DNA from: an uncultured bacterium | GTDB taxonomy: Bacteria > Patescibacteriota > Dojkabacteria > J137 | Direction of reading: 5' to 3' | DNA: 64,000 nucleotides | Assembly (NCBI GenBank): GCA_963700155.1 | Contig: OY969472.1 | Coordinates: forward strand, 176,271-240,270 | Part shown: one piece after another, positions 1,901-54,861 of the stretch | How positions within the stretch are numbered: position 1 is the first letter of the stretch | How the letters are laid out: the number at the start of each line of letters is the position of its first letter | The notes under the pieces: generated by a model | What the model saw: the letters and a program-made list of their open reading frames with translations, nothing else | Databases searched by the model: none | What the model was told of the DNA's origin: nothing | Translations under genes and position numbers: made by a program

Positions 1901-2710
1901 ATGTTCAACAAACATCAATTTAAAAAGAGCTTCGGCCAGAATTTTTTAAGGAATGGAAAGTTTACAAATAAGCTGGCCGAAGCTCTTCAAATACAACCCG
2001 ATCAATCTGTGATTGAAATAGGTCCAGGAGAAGGAGTATTAACAAACTCGCTTTTAAAAGTGAAAGCTAAAGTTATCGCAGTTGAGATCGATTATTCTTT
2101 AATACCTAATTTAATAAAAAGATTTGGTGAAAATAAGAATTTCGAAATAATAAATGAAGATATTTTACACATTGATTTTACCGAAGCACTAGATAAATTT
2201 AATGCTACATCAGAAGTAAAAGCAGCAGGTTCGCTTCCATATAATATTTCAAAGAAGATTATAAAAAAATTTGAAGACTTTAACTTAGAACAAGATAAAT
2301 ACTTTGTCTCCCAAATGGCGTTTATTGTTCAAGATGAAGTTGCGAAAGAATATGCTTCTAAAGCACCAAAAGCAAGTTTATTGAGTAACTATATTAATTT
2401 ATATGCAGATGTTAAAAAATTAGAATCAATCCCTGCTTCTCAGTTTTTTCCACAACCAAGAGTTAACGGTGCTATATTATTAATTACACCTAAAAAAGAG
2501 GTAATTGAAAATGCTGGAGAAATTTATAAGTTTATGAGACTAGGGTTTTCCGCTCCGCGGAAAACCCTTCTAAAAAACTTAAAGAACTCAAATAAATGGG
2601 ATAAAGAGTTTCTTATCAAAACTTTTTCTGAACTAGAAATTAAAGAGAATGCTCGTGCTGCTGAAATTGAGAATGAAAAGTGGGTAGAATTATATGAAAA
2701 ATTAAATTGA
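1901..2710 (+). CDS. ksgA: 16S rRNA (adenine1518/1519-N6)-dimethyltransferase KsgA/RsmA
   Basis: N-terminal KKSFGQNFL motif and the SAM-binding VIEIGPGEGVLT motif. Length of 269 aa is typical. Confidence 0.9.
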   Translation: MFNKHQFKKSFGQNFLRNGKFTNKLAEALQIQPDQSVIEIGPGEGVLTNSLLKVKAKVIAVEIDYSLIPNLIKRFGENKNFEIINEDILHIDFTEALDKFNATSEVKAAGSLPYNISKKIIKKFEDFNLEQDKYFVSQMAFIVQDEVAKEYASKAPKASLLSNYINLYADVKKLESIPASQFFPQPRVNGAILLITPKKEVIENAGEIYKFMRLGFSAPRKTLLKNLKNSNKWDKEFLIKTFSELEIKENARAAEIENEKWVELYEKLN

Positions 2711-2721
2711 TTATATATAAA

Positions 2722-4488
2722 TTACTTTATTCTTAATCCACCTAACCTAAAAATCGGATTTAGATATCGCCTCATAATTCTTAACTCTTCAACTTTAAAT
2801 AAGAAACAAAGTAGATAATACACTAAGAAGCTTGTTATCACAGTTAAAGATGTTAAAAGAATCAAGTTCAAAGTAGTCGATCCAAAATATCCTTGTCCTG
2901 CAGAAGTAGGAAGAGCATAAGCAAATGTAGTCCAGATCTTATACATTACATACATTAAAATAAACATTATTCCACCGGCTGCAAATTTCAAACCAGTTGT
3001 TCTGGCAAGAGTTTTAAAATTCAACTTCAATTTCTTGTAATTAAAAATTATTAAAAGTGCAAAAAATTCTAATGAATACGCAACACTCATTCCTAAAGAA
3101 ATACCCCCAACTGCAGCCGGTCCATTGCCTCTAGTAAACAAATTATTAAGATTAATCTGTGTTAATGAGATGGCATAGTCAGCATTATGGCTGAATAAAT
3201 TAGTAAACATTATTGAAAGGAATACTGTTATAACAAGACTTGCTGCAGAAACTAAAAATGGTACAAAAGTATCTTTTGCTGCATAAAAAACTCTATACAT
3301 AAACCATCTTCCACAAACAAATACGTGACCAACAGCAAACCATAATAAAACCCAAGCAGTTTGATATGTAGCATCAAGAGTAAAGTTTGTATTAGGTAAA
3401 ATTCCGAAGACCAACCTTACAATCGGAACTCTTAATACTATTAAAGTAATTATAAACGGTAAAGCTAAGAACAAAATTTCATTTAATGTTTTAATTATTA
3501 CTGTTTGTGCCTTTTCTAAATTATTGTCTTCAAATAACTCTGATAAAATTGTGAACGATGCATATGAAAACGAGGCGGCGAAAAGCGTAGGAATCACTAA
3601 CGATAGTGAGTTTGCATAGTTCAGGGCAGAAATGCTATTTGCGCTAATTGCAAAAGCTAAAAAATCATCAATAGTTAAAGCTATATTCTCCGAAGCTAAA
3701 GCTAGTGTTCTAGGTAAACTAGATACAAGTATTTTCTTGAGATATCCATTCCATTCAAATTCAATTTTGTAATTAAGTCCAAGAGATTTAAATAATGGAA
3801 TTTGTATCAACAAATGTAATATAGAACCCATAAAGACTCCAATTACAATTGCCCATGGGCTGTAATTTAGGAGTGGAACTAAGATCAACAACCCAACAAT
3901 TCTTCCAATATTAAATAATAGTGGGGCAAGTTGAGGAACTACATATCTGTTATAAATGTTAAGTCCACTTGATATTAAGACACTCAAACCTAAAACTACC
4001 TGAGGGATTAATAAAACCCGCATCATAGAAATAACTGTCTGTATCTCTGAAGGTGACAAATCAACTTGCCCCTGCCCAAGCAGTTTTAATAAAAATGGGA
4101 ATATTGAATCAGCAAATATTGCAAATATTAAAGATGCGAAGACAAATAATGCTAAGAGTCCACTTATTATTGAATTGTAGAGCTTATAAAAAGCCTCTTT
4201 ACCTTCTTTTTTTCGAATCTCAATTAATGTAGGAATAATTACCGAACTAATTGCTCCTCCAAGGAGTATATTTGTCAGCATGTCTGGAATAGAACTTGCT
4301 AACTGAAATTGATTCCAGCCTTGGTTTCGAGTTCCAAAGTAAGAAGCAGCAATAAGATTAAAAAAGAGTCCGGAGAACTTAGTTAACAGAGATGGAATCA
4401 TCAAGATGATTGCAGTCTCAAGAATTTCTGTTTGTTCCTTACTTAAAATATTCTTGATGCTGTTAATGCTTTTTTGTAAAGCTGTCAT
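2722..4488 (-). CDS. murJ: Lipid II flippase MurJ/MviN (MOP superfamily), about 14 TM segments
   Basis: Polytopic membrane protein. The N-terminal pattern YFG...F..A..IPDML..ILLGGAISS..IP matches the conserved MurJ N-terminus. Size fits. Confidence 0.65.
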   Translation of the reverse strand: MTALQKSINSIKNILSKEQTEILETAIILMIPSLLTKFSGLFFNLIAASYFGTRNQGWNQFQLASSIPDMLTNILLGGAISSVIIPTLIEIRKKEGKEAFYKLYNSIISGLLALFVFASLIFAIFADSIFPFLLKLLGQGQVDLSPSEIQTVISMMRVLLIPQVVLGLSVLISSGLNIYNRYVVPQLAPLLFNIGRIVGLLILVPLLNYSPWAIVIGVFMGSILHLLIQIPLFKSLGLNYKIEFEWNGYLKKILVSSLPRTLALASENIALTIDDFLAFAISANSISALNYANSLSLVIPTLFAASFSYASFTILSELFEDNNLEKAQTVIIKTLNEILFLALPFIITLIVLRVPIVRLVFGILPNTNFTLDATYQTAWVLLWFAVGHVFVCGRWFMYRVFYAAKDTFVPFLVSAASLVITVFLSIMFTNLFSHNADYAISLTQINLNNLFTRGNGPAAVGGISLGMSVAYSLEFFALLIIFNYKKLKLNFKTLARTTGLKFAAGGIMFILMYVMYKIWTTFAYALPTSAGQGYFGSTTLNLILLTSLTVITSFLVYYLLCFLFKVEELRIMRRYLNPIFRLGGLRIK

Positions 4489-22453: not shown

Positions 22454-22975
22454 TTAAGATAGAATTATTTTAAAGGCTTCATTAAGGTAGTTAATTTCAC
22501 TATTTGAGTAACTTCTTTTTTTAAGCATTTCAATAACTTGTGCTACCAAGGATCTTATAAGTTCGTTAGACTTATAGAGATCTGATAAGGCGTATCGTGC
22601 AGATGATACAACACTCCTATATAAAATTTTTGTACTTTCATCAGTTTCCATAGAGCCAGGGACAATAACCTCAAGTAGAGCAAAAATTAACAAAATAGCA
22701 ATATTCTCAACTTGAGGTTTGAGAGTTTCGTTACTTTCTAAACTCACTTTTGAATCCTTTACAAGGTCAGCTTGTTCTTTTAGTTCACCTATAGCTAATA
22801 TTAAACTTCCGTTATGCTCTTTTTCTAGACCTTCTACCATTTTATTTAGCCTTTTTACATCCAACCAAGGGGAAAATAATTCATCTACAATTACAGTTTT
22901 ATACTCATTAAAATTCCTTTTCTCTTCACTTTCTCTAAATAATTTCATAAATAACAAAACTAAGGTAAAAGCCAT
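22454..22975 (-). CDS. Hypothetical protein
   Basis: ORF only. Overlaps the upstream gene by 16 nt, consistent with co-transcription. Confidence 0.45.
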   Translation of the reverse strand: MAFTLVLLFMKLFRESEEKRNFNEYKTVIVDELFSPWLDVKRLNKMVEGLEKEHNGSLILAIGELKEQADLVKDSKVSLESNETLKPQVENIAILLIFALLEVIVPGSMETDESTKILYRSVVSSARYALSDLYKSNELIRSLVAQVIEMLKKRSYSNSEINYLNEAFKIILS

Positions 22976-24810
22976 TTAAATCCTAGCAGATTTTCTAAGA
23001 AAGTGTCTAGTCCAGATGGAGTTTTGTTTTTTCTTTGTCGATTTGAGGTTGAATTATTATTAATTTCAAGTTCATATTTATTTTTCAGGTCGTTCAAAAC
23101 CCCCTTATCATAAGCATCTTTGATTACATTCCCATTCATACCACAGTTAGGGCAATTTTGATCCAAGTCGCAAACATCTATCGATCCTTCTCCACAAATT
23201 GGACATTTTATATGTCTCTCAACTTTTTTAGTCTCTTTATTATATTTATCAAAGAACTCAAGAATCTCACCTTTCTTCCCAATTACTTTATCAAAATTGC
23301 CCACAAGAGTATTATTACCAACGCTTTGACTATTTCGAGATTCTGAATTTTCAGACGCTGGTAAAGTTTTATTTTCAGAATTAATATTTTTTATTTGAAT
23401 ATTTACAACACCACATTCTGCCCCTTCTGAAATCTCAGAAATATTAACTTTTCCATCTTTAGAATTTTTACCAACATCAGTATTTTGGGATACGAAACCA
23501 GAAACTGTATTACCTGAGACTACACTTTGTAATAAGTTAGAATTGATTTTATCTTGATCCTCAATAGATATATTTTTATGTTTTGGCATATAAGTCATCC
23601 AAGCTGCATCAAGAACTTGTTGATATCTTTCTGAGAATTTTTGTAATTCAGTTGAATTTAAAGCAGCATTAGGAAGATTTGCCATAAGACTCTGTATAAA
23701 TGGATGAATAGTTAAGCCGATTGCATCTATTTTTGGTTTTATTAAATCATCATTAAGTCTCAAAATATCTAGTCCCCCTAAAGAATTTATTAAATTTAGT
23801 CTTTCGAGCAAATCTTCTTCTTCTATTCCCCTGATAATAAAAGTTTCGGATAAAATCTTATTTTGTGAAGATTTTAAGTTCCCAGTTTGAGTGGCAATCG
23901 AGAGTTCTCGCAGATTTTGTAGATCAAAAGCAAGTGCCTCTAGATTATTTGGCAATGAAAAGATTCTCGATTGCCACCCGTTTTTTGAATATTTATAAAT
24001 TCTCAACATAATATCCTTTTGATGTTTATAAATTGGTGGACTAAATTCAATAAATAAATCACCATTTTGAATTTGGACATCTTTCAATCCAGAGAGCTGT
24101 GAATATAAATAATTCAAGGTATTGCTATCAAAATCTTCTTCTAACAACAAGTTCAAAAGTTCTTCAGAATTTTTATATTTTAATTCCCATAATTTTAATA
24201 AATTCAAAAGTTCTACTAACTCTCTTTCATTATGTTTTACAGTAAAACACCTTATAGCAGAATCAATCATCATTTTATGTTTTTTTTGATCAAAATCGTT
24301 TTTAAAAATTCTTCCTCGCAGACTATTTTTATTCATAAATCTATTAAATTTATTTACTGTCTCACCTGAATAATTTTCTAAAATTTGATATGAATCCGCA
24401 TCTTTTAAAATAGATTCAAAATCATATAGCTTGCCTTCTTTTAGCTGAGTAAGAATATCCTGTTCAATTTGAGAATAAATTTCCCAGTAGCTTTCTGAAA
24501 TATTTAAATATTTTAACTTATCTTTGAAATTCAATTTCGATAAGTCAGCTGAATTTTCTAAAAGCTTTGACCAATAATCCCATTCAGAAAAAATATTTAT
24601 TAAATCTTCTAGTGAAAGTTCACTATTTCTAAAGTTATCTCCTAAAATTTGCAACAATAATCTGAATTTATCTTTTATAGATAAGGATAAACTATATCCT
24701 TTATCTTTAATTTCGAATGACTCTTCATATGTAGGTTTTAACCTTTGTAAAAAAGATTCAATGTATCTATCTAATAATGTAGAATTATCTACTGATTCAA
24801 CAAATTCCAT
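22960..24810 (-). CDS. Hypothetical 616-aa protein with a C-terminal Cys4 zinc-ribbon
   Basis: Long helical, Leu/Asn-rich ORF. The C-terminal CPICGEGSIDVCDLDQNCPNCG is a zinc-ribbon. Confidence 0.5.
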   Translation of the reverse strand: MEFVESVDNSTLLDRYIESFLQRLKPTYEESFEIKDKGYSLSLSIKDKFRLLLQILGDNFRNSELSLEDLINIFSEWDYWSKLLENSADLSKLNFKDKLKYLNISESYWEIYSQIEQDILTQLKEGKLYDFESILKDADSYQILENYSGETVNKFNRFMNKNSLRGRIFKNDFDQKKHKMMIDSAIRCFTVKHNERELVELLNLLKLWELKYKNSEELLNLLLEEDFDSNTLNYLYSQLSGLKDVQIQNGDLFIEFSPPIYKHQKDIMLRIYKYSKNGWQSRIFSLPNNLEALAFDLQNLRELSIATQTGNLKSSQNKILSETFIIRGIEEEDLLERLNLINSLGGLDILRLNDDLIKPKIDAIGLTIHPFIQSLMANLPNAALNSTELQKFSERYQQVLDAAWMTYMPKHKNISIEDQDKINSNLLQSVVSGNTVSGFVSQNTDVGKNSKDGKVNISEISEGAECGVVNIQIKNINSENKTLPASENSESRNSQSVGNNTLVGNFDKVIGKKGEILEFFDKYNKETKKVERHIKCPICGEGSIDVCDLDQNCPNCGMNGNVIKDAYDKGVLNDLKNKYELEINNNSTSNRQRKNKTPSGLDTFLENLLGFKWLLP

Positions 24811-51604: not shown

Positions 51605-52849
51605 TTAAATAAGACTTTTTATCTCTTCAAGTTCTACAATTCTTGAACTATCTTCATTCCTATTCTTTATTTCAAGTTGGGTTCCTGTTTTTTTAGAAAC
51701 AACAACTCTCAAAGGAATTCCAATTAAATCAGAATCTGCAAACTTTTCTCCAGCTCTAGTATCGACTCTGTCATCATAAAGAACATCAAAACCCAAATCT
51801 GTGAGCGTTTTGTAAACTTCTTCTGCCCTGTTATTTACTTCAACTTCTTCAAGATTAAGCCCTACAAGATGAACTTGAAAAGGAGCTAAAGATTTTGGCC
51901 ATACAATTCCTTTATCATCTGAAAGTTTTTCAACAACAACTCCCATTAACCTTGTTATTCCTATCCCATATGAACCCAATATAACAGGCTTTCTGTTTCC
52001 TTCCTCGTCAGTAAAGTAAAGATCTAACTGTTCAGATTTAGTACTCCCAAAACTAAATATATTTCCAACTTCTGCGGTTTTTACCTTTTCAAGTTCATCT
52101 TTTTTAAGATTTAATTGGTTAATAACATCATCACTAAAGACTTCTTCATTTATCGCAATCTTTTTATTTCTATCAAGATAAATTGTATCCTCACCAGCTT
52201 CAGTTATTGTCTGAAACTCATGGCTGAATTGAGTAAATGCACCACCAGAAGCGAAAGTAAAAAATGTATCTTCTCCAATTCCTGCTCTCTCAAATACTTT
52301 TTTGTAGGCTTCTGTTGTCTTGTCATAAATATCCTTATGTGCTTTCTCATCTACAGAATAAGAATACATATCTTTCATAACAAATTCTCTTCCTCTCATA
52401 ATTCCACTTTTAGCCCTTAATTCATTTCTTAATTTAGTTTGAAATTGATAAACATAAACAGGAAGATCTCTGTAACTTGAGATAAATTCTTTCATCATCT
52501 CAGTAATTGGTTCTTCATGCGACCATCCAAATCCAACTTCAGTTCCGTTTTTTAATTGTGACTTAAACCAGACATCGACTTTTTCATCACTCCACCTATC
52601 AGTTTTCTCCCAAAGTTCTTTTTTTTGTAGCGCAGTCATAATAATTTCTTGTCCACCAATTGCATTCATCTCTTCCCGAACAATTTGTTTTATTTTCTCT
52701 AGAACTTTCAAACCGAGTGGAAGATAAGCATATGCTCCAGCCATCTCTTTATGAATAAAGCCAGCTTTTATTAAAAGCTGAGCATTTTTTGATATTTCTT
52801 CAGCTGGTACATTTTTATTAGTTTTCGAAAACAGTTTCGAATATCTCAT
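51605..52849 (-). CDS. proS: Prolyl-tRNA synthetase, short form lacking the INS editing domain
   Basis: N-terminal MRYSKLF..KNVPAEEISKNAQLLIKAGFI..AYAYLPLGLKVLEKI. Class II motif 2 RGREFVMKDMYS. The anticodon-binding C-terminus is present. At 414 aa it is too short for an INS domain. Confidence 0.85.
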   Translation of the reverse strand: MRYSKLFSKTNKNVPAEEISKNAQLLIKAGFIHKEMAGAYAYLPLGLKVLEKIKQIVREEMNAIGGQEIIMTALQKKELWEKTDRWSDEKVDVWFKSQLKNGTEVGFGWSHEEPITEMMKEFISSYRDLPVYVYQFQTKLRNELRAKSGIMRGREFVMKDMYSYSVDEKAHKDIYDKTTEAYKKVFERAGIGEDTFFTFASGGAFTQFSHEFQTITEAGEDTIYLDRNKKIAINEEVFSDDVINQLNLKKDELEKVKTAEVGNIFSFGSTKSEQLDLYFTDEEGNRKPVILGSYGIGITRLMGVVVEKLSDDKGIVWPKSLAPFQVHLVGLNLEEVEVNNRAEEVYKTLTDLGFDVLYDDRVDTRAGEKFADSDLIGIPLRVVVSKKTGTQLEIKNRNEDSSRIVELEEIKSLI

Positions 52850-53110
52850 TTTTATAAAATTAATAATTACGAAAATAAAAAATCGCCCATTAATAAATTT
52901 AGTCTACATCATTTTAAACTAAATTTATTATAAGGACGATTTGAATCGTGTTACCACCTTAATTTGTTTTGATATTTCTACCAAAACCTTAGTAGCTGCT
53001 AATAACAGCCTCCTTATTTCATTTGTACTAGTTAGGGTTCTAGTGAAAGTTACCTTTCAAAGTTTCCTTTCCTGCTCCAAGGCTGGGAACCTTTTCATTG
53101 CAGACTATAG
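52850..53110 (-). promoter_or_regulatory. Putative T-box riboswitch leader of proS
   Basis: The minus-sense AATTAAGGTGGTAACACG (52964-52947) matches the T-box consensus AATTAGGGTGGTACCGCG at 15 of 18 positions. AAGG-[UGGUAAC]-ACGAUUCAAAUCGU-CCUU gives the canonical antiterminator with a 7-nt UGGN bulge. Its 3' strand, AAAUCGUCC, is also the 5' strand of a downstream terminator hairpin (52942-52879) that is followed by UUUUUUAUUUU and lies 30 nt before the start codon. Confidence 0.55.
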
Positions 53111-53361: not shown

Positions 53362-54861
53362 ATGCATCCACTTTTAGAAAAACAATTAGAAGAAATTCAA
53401 AACTCCGACAATGAAGTTATAGTAATACCAGGATTAGGAGGACATTCAGGTGCATCCTGGGCCCAAGTATTAAATTCTCACAACAATATTAATTTTGTAT
53501 TAATTTTTAACTCTTTCGATGATGGAGGTGATACTGGCAAAGTTACTGCAGCATTAGGAACACCTTCAATGGGAGATTTTAGAAACACTTTAGGGCATAT
53601 TTGGGAAGTTTCTGGAAATTTCGAATTGAAAAATCTTGCAAGTATTTTTAACCAAAGAGTAAACAATTTTTATGAACTAAAAATACTTGCAAGAGAAGCA
53701 TTAATGCAAATTGCAAAAATATCAGGTCGCAATGAAATCGGGAGGTTTGATATTGAAAAATATATCGATATTTATGAAGCAGAATGTCAAAAACTTGATC
53801 CAGACTATTTATATGGACCTGATGGGAATCTTATTAAACATAATGTTGGTAATATAATTCTTTCTGCCTTATACACACATTTAGGAGGTATTGATGAACT
53901 GGTATACGCTTTTAAGTCATGTTTGTTAATCAATAAAAATATTTATTGTGTTTCAATGGCAGAAAACGAAAATGTTGAGTTAAGGGGAATAGATGAAGAA
54001 GGAAATCTTATTCGTAGAGAGAAAAATATTGATAACCATAGAAAACGAATTGCTTTAAAATCACTTTTTTGTGCAAGAAGAGGTACAAACCCATCAGAAA
54101 ATTACACTACTAAAAATGAGTTTATTAGTGAAGTAATTAAGCTTGCAAAAATGATAAATTTCCCACAAAGTTCACCAAATAATTGGTCAGTAATAACAAA
54201 AATGTATCAAGATGAAATAACTTATGCATTATCAAAAGTAGATCCTGCAATTGCTGTGTGCTGGACTCCAGTAACACAAGAAGAAAATACTTTTGGGATT
54301 GCTGACATTATCTTATACCTTTGGGAAATGTTCCCTAATAAAGTGAAATTTATCATCCCCGAAACACCGGATAGACTTATACAAGAACATTTTTTTGAGT
54401 ACGGTAATATTCTAAAAGCATATAGAAAAGAAGGTAAAACTTTGCAACTTTTTAATTTAAATCAATTTGCAGAAGCTCTATCTTATGTACTTGAAAATTT
54501 TTATCCAAATCTTAATGTATTTACTGGAGAAGAAATATTAAGAAGTATGTACAATGTTTCGGGATCAGTTAGTATTGTATATGACCATCCAGATGGAGAA
54601 GTTTATGAAATTCCTCTAACGTCAGAACAAAGTGATCTTCATGCAAGACTAGCACTTGAAAATAGAGGAATAAAACATAATCCAAAATTTATGACTGAAT
54701 TTATTAAAAGACTTATAGAATCTAATTGGGAATTATCATGTGAAGTATTTAAGGAAATCGAAAAAGAAGTAAATAGTAACTTTAGAAGCTTGGCAAATAT
54801 TGAAACGAGAGAGCTTAAAGTACGACAAGATAATATCAACACAGAATTAGTAGCAAAATAA
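53362..54861 (+). CDS. Divergent CofD/YvcK (UPF0052) family protein
   Basis: VIVIPGLGGHSG... and FNSFDDGGDTGKV...MGDFRNTL match the family GGGTG / DDGGSSG / PGDxRN motif series. The protein is longer than usual. Confidence 0.5.
   Translation: MHPLLEKQLEEIQNSDNEVIVIPGLGGHSGASWAQVLNSHNNINFVLIFNSFDDGGDTGKVTAALGTPSMGDFRNTLGHIWEVSGNFELKNLASIFNQRVNNFYELKILAREALMQIAKISGRNEIGRFDIEKYIDIYEAECQKLDPDYLYGPDGNLIKHNVGNIILSALYTHLGGIDELVYAFKSCLLINKNIYCVSMAENENVELRGIDEEGNLIRREKNIDNHRKRIALKSLFCARRGTNPSENYTTKNEFISEVIKLAKMINFPQSSPNNWSVITKMYQDEITYALSKVDPAIAVCWTPVTQEENTFGIADIILYLWEMFPNKVKFIIPETPDRLIQEHFFEYGNILKAYRKEGKTLQLFNLNQFAEALSYVLENFYPNLNVFTGEEILRSMYNVSGSVSIVYDHPDGEVYEIPLTSEQSDLHARLALENRGIKHNPKFMTEFIKRLIESNWELSCEVFKEIEKEVNSNFRSLANIETRELKVRQDNINTELVAK

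Follow-up and report, generated by a model that had tools for sequence, protein, structure and literature searches.

The window, by which we mean the entire 64,000-nt stretch of DNA that was analysed (G+C content 31.8%), encodes a bacterial-type prolyl-tRNA synthetase (ProRS) on its minus strand. A gap of 512 nt separates this proS gene from a divergently transcribed CofD-like gene, and two small ORFs lie 3' of proS. Judged only by the short gaps, these ORFs are possibly co-transcribed with proS; the next terminator-like site on the minus strand 3' of proS is at 50692-50664. The original prediction that this ProRS lacks an editing domain was borne out, since Pfam detects the class II core and the anticodon-binding domain in the ORF and no other domain. 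Upstream of proS lies an RNA leader composed of the following elements.

53362-54861, plus strand: CofD-like gene, divergent
53140-53112, minus strand: promoter-like site TTGACT, 17-nt spacer, TAAAAT (sequence match)
53103-52872, minus strand: complete T-box leader of about 230 nt, between the promoter-like site and proS
53103-53072, minus strand: ultrashort Stem I of 32 nt, CUGC-AAUGAA-AAGG-UUCCCAG-CCUU-GGA-GCAG (Rfam alignment, covariation, RNAalifold)
53089-53083, minus strand: apical Specifier loop UUCCCAG, 7 nt
53071-53045, minus strand: Stem II, GAAAG/CUUUC around GAA...GGUAA, an S-turn-like internal motif (helix 3 covariation)
53043-53028, minus strand: Stem IIA hairpin, CUAG-AACCCUAA-CUAG (helix 4 covariation, RNAalifold)
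53014-53012, minus strand: AGG of the Stem IIB pseudoknot; its pairing partners in the IIA loop are C53036, C53035 and U53034
53010-52994, minus strand: extra linker hairpin "X", GGCUGUU-AUU-AGCAGCU (helix 6 covariation)
52987-52966, minus strand: Stem III, GUUUUGGUA-GAAA-UAUCAAAAC (fold, helix 7 covariation, RNAalifold)
52960-52932, minus strand: T-box/antiterminator, helix A1 AAGG/CCUU, bulge UGGUAAC, helix A2 ACGAU/AUCGU (Rfam, fold, covariation)
52942-52880, minus strand: terminator hairpin, AAAUCGUCC...GGGCGAUUU (fold)
to 52872, minus strand: U-tract UUUAUUUU after the terminator hairpin
52849-51605, minus strand: proS, bacterial-type ProRS, 414 aa (PF00587 and PF03129 only)
51578-50815, minus strand: two small ORFs 3' of proS, a DUF1801 protein of 126 aa and another ORF of 113 aa

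In the linkers, the AGG of the pseudoknot closes an A-rich stretch 3' of Stem IIA, ACUAAG (with a purine-rich AAG at its end) lies between hairpin X and Stem III, and AAAUU lies between Stem III and the antiterminator. Single promoter matches occur at chance level in the AT-rich DNA of the window (91 found versus 93 expected), and thus the argument for the promoter lies solely in where it sits with respect to Stem I, which is conserved. In the window leader the end of the -10 hexamer is 8 nt 5' of Stem I and, as read by eye, a -35/-10 pair is located 7-11 nt 5' of Stem I in seven of the eight complete leaders (see below).

The leader had been predicted to be a T-box, and the sequence elements on which that prediction was based are those we found. 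The T-box core AAUUAAGGUGGUAACACG is present at 52965-52948 (minus strand) with the UGGU bulge at 52956-52953, and it folds as described into the antiterminator AAGG-UGGUAAC-ACGAU-UCAA-AUCGU-CCUU. The terminator hairpin and its U-tract are also where they had been placed, the stem ending 30 nt 5' of the proS ATG at 52849.

When Rfam was run on the window at its default thresholds it reported three tRNAs and one cobalamin riboswitch, with no T-box listed. We rejected this apparent absence as a threshold effect, because scans with permissive filters matched all 219 positions of the T-box model (RF00230) at 52929-53107 (minus strand) with 52.8 bits, the E value being 1e-10 in a 601-nt scan and 1.1e-8 over the whole 64-kb window searched on both strands. 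The Rfam gathering score is 93. The shortfall is due to the natural replacement of 76 Stem I model positions (middle and distal) by 7 nt in the window leader, and not to poor overall fit; the kink-turn base of Stem I, Stem II, the GUUA box, Stem III and the T-box/antiterminator are all well aligned to the model. The original prediction had named a below-threshold RF00230 score as evidence against a T-box. Such a score was indeed obtained, but it does not refute the assignment because the E values are 1e-8 or below, the deficit is confined to the truncated Stem I and homologous leaders covary in every helix. The remaining weak Rfam matches in the leader region were clearly noise. With our custom covariance model of the discriminator domain (R1), the window leader scored 77.1 bits (E value 1.3e-16).

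The cobalamin riboswitch found in the same scan (RF00174, 24851-24999, minus strand) passed its gathering score of 31.5 with 43 bits. It lies directly 5' of two ORFs on the minus strand, 22960-24810 (616 aa) and 22454-22975 (173 aa), neither of which has a Pfam match, and judging from this arrangement the two ORFs would be B12-controlled proteins in a Patescibacteria genome.

ProRS homologues of the window protein comprise hundreds of Patescibacteria proteins of about 415 residues, the nearest named relatives (73-74% identity) being from Candidatus Dojkabacteria metagenome-assembled genomes. We scanned 176 loci (about 860 kb) carrying ProRS relatives with an nhmmer profile and the R1 model; the 160 loci that came from genome and metagenome collections were all of the Patescibacteria type, a few of them being labelled otherwise, apparently by mistake. 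Eight further leaders were found, each 5' either of proS itself or of a small operon with proS as its last gene, mostly in Dojkabacteria-like organisms. In the list below, loci are designated by L numbers.

L003: leader directly before proS; loop UUCCCAG; degenerate Stem II
L081 (identical to L163/L164): leader directly before proS; loop UACCCAG
L169: leader directly before proS; loop cut off; the closest relative (77%), its 5' third missing because the contig ends there
L002: leader before a 242-aa ORF, then proS; loop UUCCCAG
L011: leader before two small ORFs, then proS; loop CCUCCUA
L005: leader before an IS200-like transposase ORF, then proS; loop CCUCCUA
L165 (identical to L166): leader before proS; loop AUUCCUA; a divergent form
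L115: leader before tRNA-Pro(GGG), then proS; internal loop with CCG-G; higher G+C

All of these related leaders have the UGGU sequence, and their RF00230 scores of 31-64 bits are all under the threshold. Beyond the window leader and its eight relatives no T-box was detected in the scanned loci. A strict regular expression for the T-box core, applied 5' of proS, had found only L003. We abandoned it as too narrow, because leaders can sit 700-950 nt 5' of proS, before small operons, and because helix A2 of L005 has GUG. The distribution is patchy: leaders were present in six of 160 loci in two unbiased scans and in about half of the 17 nearest ProRS relatives examined, and were absent from L161, L162, L167, L170-L172 and L174-L176. 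L163 and L175 have alike gene orders (Na/Ca exchanger, PLDc_N protein, proS), with a 279-nt gap containing the leader in L163 (2223-2500) versus a 1-nt gap lacking it in L175 (2499-2501), a clean presence/absence polymorphism of the riboswitch. Its absence from most close relatives indicates that the leader is dispensable.

Several of these loci have peculiarities of their own. The L005 ORF inserted between leader and proS (932-1480) is an IS200-like Y1 transposase (PF01797). In L165 (2299-2445) a Specifier hairpin, AGGAG-AUUCCUA-CUCUU, and a GC-rich hairpin, UCCGCCUCGGCGGA, stand on one basal Stem I helix, and the Rfam alignment gives no Stem III. In L115 the T-box (2062-2254) has its own terminator and is followed by tRNA-Pro(GGG) (2321-2397) and proS (2501-3736); the sensed codon CCG mismatches the GGG anticodon of the adjacent tRNA. 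A short ORF between leader and proS in L011 (1150-1350) resembles, by eye, a tRNA-binding domain of the CsaA/EMAP type and is apparently interrupted. Directly 3' of the L169 proS (1456-1525) is a sub-threshold tmRNA-like match (30.9 bits; gathering score 47) that covers the tRNA-like ends only.

Eight leaders were segmented by hand and checked against the sequence, with the register fixed by N padding. The main covariation count was made on an alignment hand-fitted to the structure, with nine helices including the pseudoknot. In this alignment 99.1% of 326 cells form standard pairs, versus 31-44% when the 3' partners were slid by 1-3 columns, and none of 500 shuffles reached the observed value on any of five measures. 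Compensatory changes were present in every one of the nine helices (basal and upper Stem I, Stem II, Stem IIA, the pseudoknot, hairpin X, Stem III, A1 and A2), and double-sided changes were found in 37 of 49 pairs. For instance, basal Stem I occurs as CUGC/GCAG, UUAC/GUAA, AUGC/GCAU, UCGC/GCGA, UCAC/GUGA and AGC/GCU, and all nine pairs of Stem III (helix 7) show double changes. So many compensatory changes with the structure kept argue for purifying selection on the structure. As the main alignment had been fitted to the structure, we also ran MAFFT and RNAalifold on the raw sequences. This unguided procedure recovered upper Stem I with its 7-nt loop, Stem IIA, Stem III, A1 and A2, with 21 of 28 pairs compensatory, and missed only the helices beside length-variable loops. 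The proposed T-box leader with an antiterminator/terminator switch on proS is thus supported by the Rfam match, by the folds and by covarying homologous leaders, and we conclude that the proS leader is a genuine T-box.

Stem I consists of a basal helix (CUGC/GCAG), a kink-turn with an AAU bulge and tandem G.A/A.G pairs, and a 4-bp upper helix (AAGG/CCUU). The segments GCAAUGAAAAGG...CCUUGGAGC align to the Stem I base and kink-turn consensus of RF00230, and GC-AAU-GA...GGA-GC aligns to the kink-turn of the model, by which a kink is predicted. None of the seven complete leaders in alignment A3 has lost the tandem GA/GA. Recovery of the upper helix and loop by RNAalifold was unguided. Distal Stem I, with the AG bulge and distal loop that form the tRNA-elbow platform, is missing from the window leader.

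Although a Pro Specifier had not been located in the original prediction, which named the lack of a foldable Stem I with such a codon as evidence against a T-box, we found one and it is conserved. It had been missed because the codon is in the apical loop (UUCCCAG, 53089-53083) and not in an internal loop. In T-boxes with short Stem I the Specifier is in the apical loop and is directly followed by a conserved purine, A19 in Nocardia (PMC7583486, PMC10482949). Given the apical loops of the window, L003 and L002 (UUCCCAG), L081 (UACCCAG), L011 and L005 (CCUCCUA) and L165 (AUUCCUA), only one reading fits every leader, a Pro codon with a single purine after it beside the 3' strand. In the window leader this gives two candidates, CCC at 53087-53085 with A as the next nucleotide and CCA at 53086-53084 with G next, and both are proline codons. 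If a U.G pair closes the loop to leave a pentaloop the reading would be CCC-A, and if the 7-nt loop is left open it would be CCA-G; the loop-closing U.G pair can form in all four UNCCCAG leaders. L011, L005 and L165 read CCU-A, and CCU is an accepted Pro Specifier in Bacillus proBA and proI (PMC3858371). A uniform register at loop positions 3-5 was discarded, as it gives UCC (Ser) in L011, L005 and L165. Of the class III residues described, C14 is in the loop, and U17 belongs to Stem I and is touched by the S-turn of Stem II (PMC10482949, PMC10651847); by analogy to the class III structures the codon plus purine would form the 3' end of the loop in the leaders described here.

Among the proline codons of the long ORFs of the window CCA (161) and CCU (149) are common and CCC (14) is rare. 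No tRNA-Pro gene is present within the 64-kb window, and about 730 kb of fetched CPR proS loci contained three tRNA genes, only one of which (that of L115, anticodon GGG) is a tRNA-Pro. The UGGU bulge predicts a tRNA having discriminator A73, and the L115 tRNA-Pro has A73-CCA. Bacterial tRNA-Pro carries A73, as found in E. coli identity studies.

The Stem II S-turn motif of the window leader is only approximate (GAA / AGGUAA). As read from the segmentation, a GAA / xUAA Stem II motif is present in four of seven leaders (window, L081, L011 and L005), and it is absent from the segmented L003 sequence. The Stem II helix (helix 3) has double changes in four of its five pairs. In the Stem IIB pseudoknot (helix 5) three of four pairs have double changes and 96% of the cells pair, the pairs being CCU/AGG, with GCAA/UUGC in L003 and L002, CUUA/UAAG in L011, CCA/UGG in L081 and CCC/GGG in L115. 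Hairpin X (helix 6), which has no counterpart in the Rfam consensus, is present in eight leaders including L115; five of its seven pairs show double changes and all of its cells (100%) pair. The linker of the M. tuberculosis ileS T-box is 14 nt (PMC11297988).

The competing folds differ greatly in predicted stability. The antiterminator alone is weak (-5.5 kcal/mol, z -1.0) and the terminator is strong (-25 kcal/mol, z -7.65, with none of 200 shuffles as stable), and the antiterminator 3' strand (AAAUCGUCC) is common to both; Stem III also folds stably (z -7.97). GGUGGUA is invariant in all nine leaders, each of which also has a hairpin that takes the antiterminator 3' strand together with a U-tract. 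A run of 6-7 U immediately follows the GC-clamped stem in eight of the nine, the exception being L115 with 4 U. A simple terminator scanner did not list the terminator of the leader, the stem of which is long and interrupted, and hence the evidence for the terminator is its fold. In L002 (737-753) and L011 (774-786) the terminator 3' strand contains GAGG(A) and an AUG starts directly after the U-tract, and there a single hairpin could serve as transcription terminator and also mask the ribosome-binding site of a small ORF without a Pfam match.

Taken as a whole, the leader is very probably a T-box riboswitch that responds to tRNA-Pro and attenuates transcription of proS. From the sequence elements, the covariation, the competing folds and the gene context we infer tRNA binding, the Pro isoacceptor read (CCC by GGG or CCA by UGG) and termination itself. 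Transcription would start a few nucleotides 5' of Stem I and give a minimal decoding module composed of the 32-nt Stem I with its Pro codon, the adjacent Stem II and the IIA/B pseudoknot, which together may form a class III-like anticodon-binding groove; the tRNA elbow would have no distal platform stacked on it. Upon binding of uncharged tRNA-Pro its 3' ACCA would pair with the UGGU bulge and stabilize the weak antiterminator, such that RNA polymerase would read through into proS. When the tRNA is charged or absent the terminator would take the antiterminator 3' strand and transcription would stop at the U-tract. Attenuation possibly extends to the two small ORFs 3' of proS.

Chance resemblance to a T-box, or membership of another RNA family, would fit a score under the Rfam gathering threshold and the presence of other weak, noise-level Rfam matches nearby, but not E values of 1e-8 or below with coverage of the whole model, nor covarying homologues at the same position 5' of the same gene in other genomes. 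The Rfam matches and the covariation have effectively refuted this reading already and we consider its probability negligible. Another argument concerns the mode of control. T-boxes with short or ultrashort Stem I have been described as mostly translational (PMC10482949, PMC7583486), and in L002 and L011 the GAGG(A) of the hairpin 3' strand lies 6-9 nt before the AUG. The switch might then be mainly or additionally translational, the "terminator" being a sequestrator that hides the ribosome-binding site. Against this, the 3' strand of the window hairpin, GGGCGAUUU, is not Shine-Dalgarno-like, the proS AUG is 30 nt past the stem and follows UUUUAUAAAA without a purine-rich site, and the U-tract, a mark of intrinsic terminators that sequestration does not need, has 6-7 U in eight of nine leaders. 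On these sequence grounds a translational mode seems unlikely for the window leader, and we think it very improbable as an account of the switch in general.

The leader might instead be a decaying relic that lost distal Stem I and with it useful tRNA binding, and that now acts as a constitutive partial terminator or does nothing. Such decay would be in keeping with the patchy distribution, including absence from relatives of the same synteny (L163 versus L175), with the degenerate Stem II of L003 and with the transposase ORF located between leader and proS in L005. It is difficult to reconcile with the retention in diverged leaders of nine helices, the kink-turn G.A pairs, the Pro codon, UGGU and the terminator, and the loss of the platform need not abolish binding, given that class III T-boxes bind tRNA tightly without it (Kd about 24 nM; PMC10482949). 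We therefore regard decay as very unlikely and retain the interpretation of a functional, tRNA-Pro-responsive transcriptional T-box.

The interest of such a T-box lies in what it lacks. According to the literature, transcriptional T-boxes depend on the elbow platform to capture tRNA quickly, and readthrough in vivo is lost when the platform is disabled (PMC7583486). The long Stem I has been explained by kinetics, in that the platform speeds tRNA capture before polymerase reaches the terminator, and only translational switches, being under no time limit, are said to be able to afford a short Stem I (PMC7583486). Terminator output without an elbow-gripping arm is treated as the exception in the literature consulted. 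If the platform is needed in this way, a terminator-coupled leader that lacks it may work poorly or may need something else. We entertain, as a doubtful proposal with an outside chance of being correct, that these leaders represent a fifth T-box architecture, terminator-coupled and with timely tRNA capture without the elbow, in which hairpin X (53010-52994) replaces the platform. In that architecture hairpin X would touch the tRNA body, or would pause transcription or slow the folding race, and if this were true the elbow platform would not be a general requirement for transcriptional T-boxes. As a tRNA-Pro-responsive attenuator, the element is a natural and conserved counter-example to a stated design rule of T-boxes and not a new principle; a conserved natural family that joins a minimal decoding module to an intrinsic terminator would allow a direct test of the kinetic argument.

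Within the paper collection covered, a full-text search returned no paper that joined T-boxes with Patescibacteria or CPR clade names. The older surveys consulted gave Firmicutes, Actinobacteria, Chloroflexi, Deinococcus-Thermus and a few Proteobacteria as T-box hosts (PMC2494555). New here are the combination of an ultrashort Stem I with a terminator, its Pro specificity, the covarying linker hairpin and the Patescibacteria host, although the "truncated Stem I" entries of TBDB may list such leaders. T-box regulation is thereby extended to Patescibacteria, which have very small genomes with few known regulators; the organisms with these leaders have so far resisted growth on their own. Routine annotation overlooks leaders of this kind because of the Rfam gathering threshold. 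The leader marks proS as a gene predicted to respond to proline starvation, as it would in relatives also a tRNA-Pro gene and small ORFs.

The window leader shares with class I T-boxes (RF00230; Bacillus subtilis tyrS) the kink-turn Stem I base, Stem II, the IIA/B pseudoknot, Stem III, a T-box with a UGGN bulge, an antiterminator that competes with an intrinsic terminator and control of an aminoacyl-tRNA synthetase gene. It differs in that its Stem I is 32 nt versus about 90-100 nt and has no internal Specifier loop with an S-turn and no AG bulge or distal loop, and hence no interdigitated T-loop platform for the tRNA elbow. It also has an extra linker hairpin, a host within Patescibacteria and a score below the gathering threshold of the family. 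The T-boxes of Bacillus proBA and proI and of Firmicute proS genes resemble it in having a Pro Specifier (CCU in Bacillus; PMC3858371), UGGN and attenuation, but unlike the window leader they have the canonical long Stem I.

Closer parallels are found among the T-boxes with reduced Stem I. Classes III and IV were described from actinobacterial ileS genes as "mostly" translational (PMC10482949). Class III, the "ultrashort Stem I" type, is known from ileS of Nocardia farcinica and of Mycobacterium tuberculosis/smegmatis (Sherwood et al. 2015, as cited in PMC7583486 and PMC10482949), and its architecture comprises a kink-turn Stem I, an apical-loop Specifier, an S-turn Stem II and the IIA/B pseudoknot (PMC10482949, PMC10651847, PMC7583486). 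The window leader likewise has a short kink-turn Stem I without elbow platform, an apical-loop Specifier with one purine after it, and Stem II plus the IIA/B pseudoknot adjoining Stem I. The loop measures 7 nt, or 5 nt should the U.G pair close it, versus 5-6 nt in class III (PMC10482949), its Stem II S-turn motif is only approximate and it has the added linker hairpin. Class III is Ile-specific, actinobacterial and translational through Shine-Dalgarno sequestration, whereas the window leader is Pro-type, has a Patescibacteria host and carries a U-tract terminator at its 3' end; the Shine-Dalgarno-sequestering platform usual in class III is not found in the window leader, "mostly" translational describing what is typical of the class and not a strict rule. 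L115 is instead like class IV, the "intermediate Stem I" type of Actinomyces odontolyticus ileS, in having an internal Specifier loop (AAUAGUA / GAA-CCG-G) and above it a minimal distal hairpin without elbow platform. It departs from class IV in being Pro-specific, terminator-coupled and located before tRNA-Pro(GGG) and proS, and the window leader is shorter still than L115. By analogy, then, the decoding module of the window leader fits class III, and that of L115 fits class IV, among the four published classes (PMC10482949).
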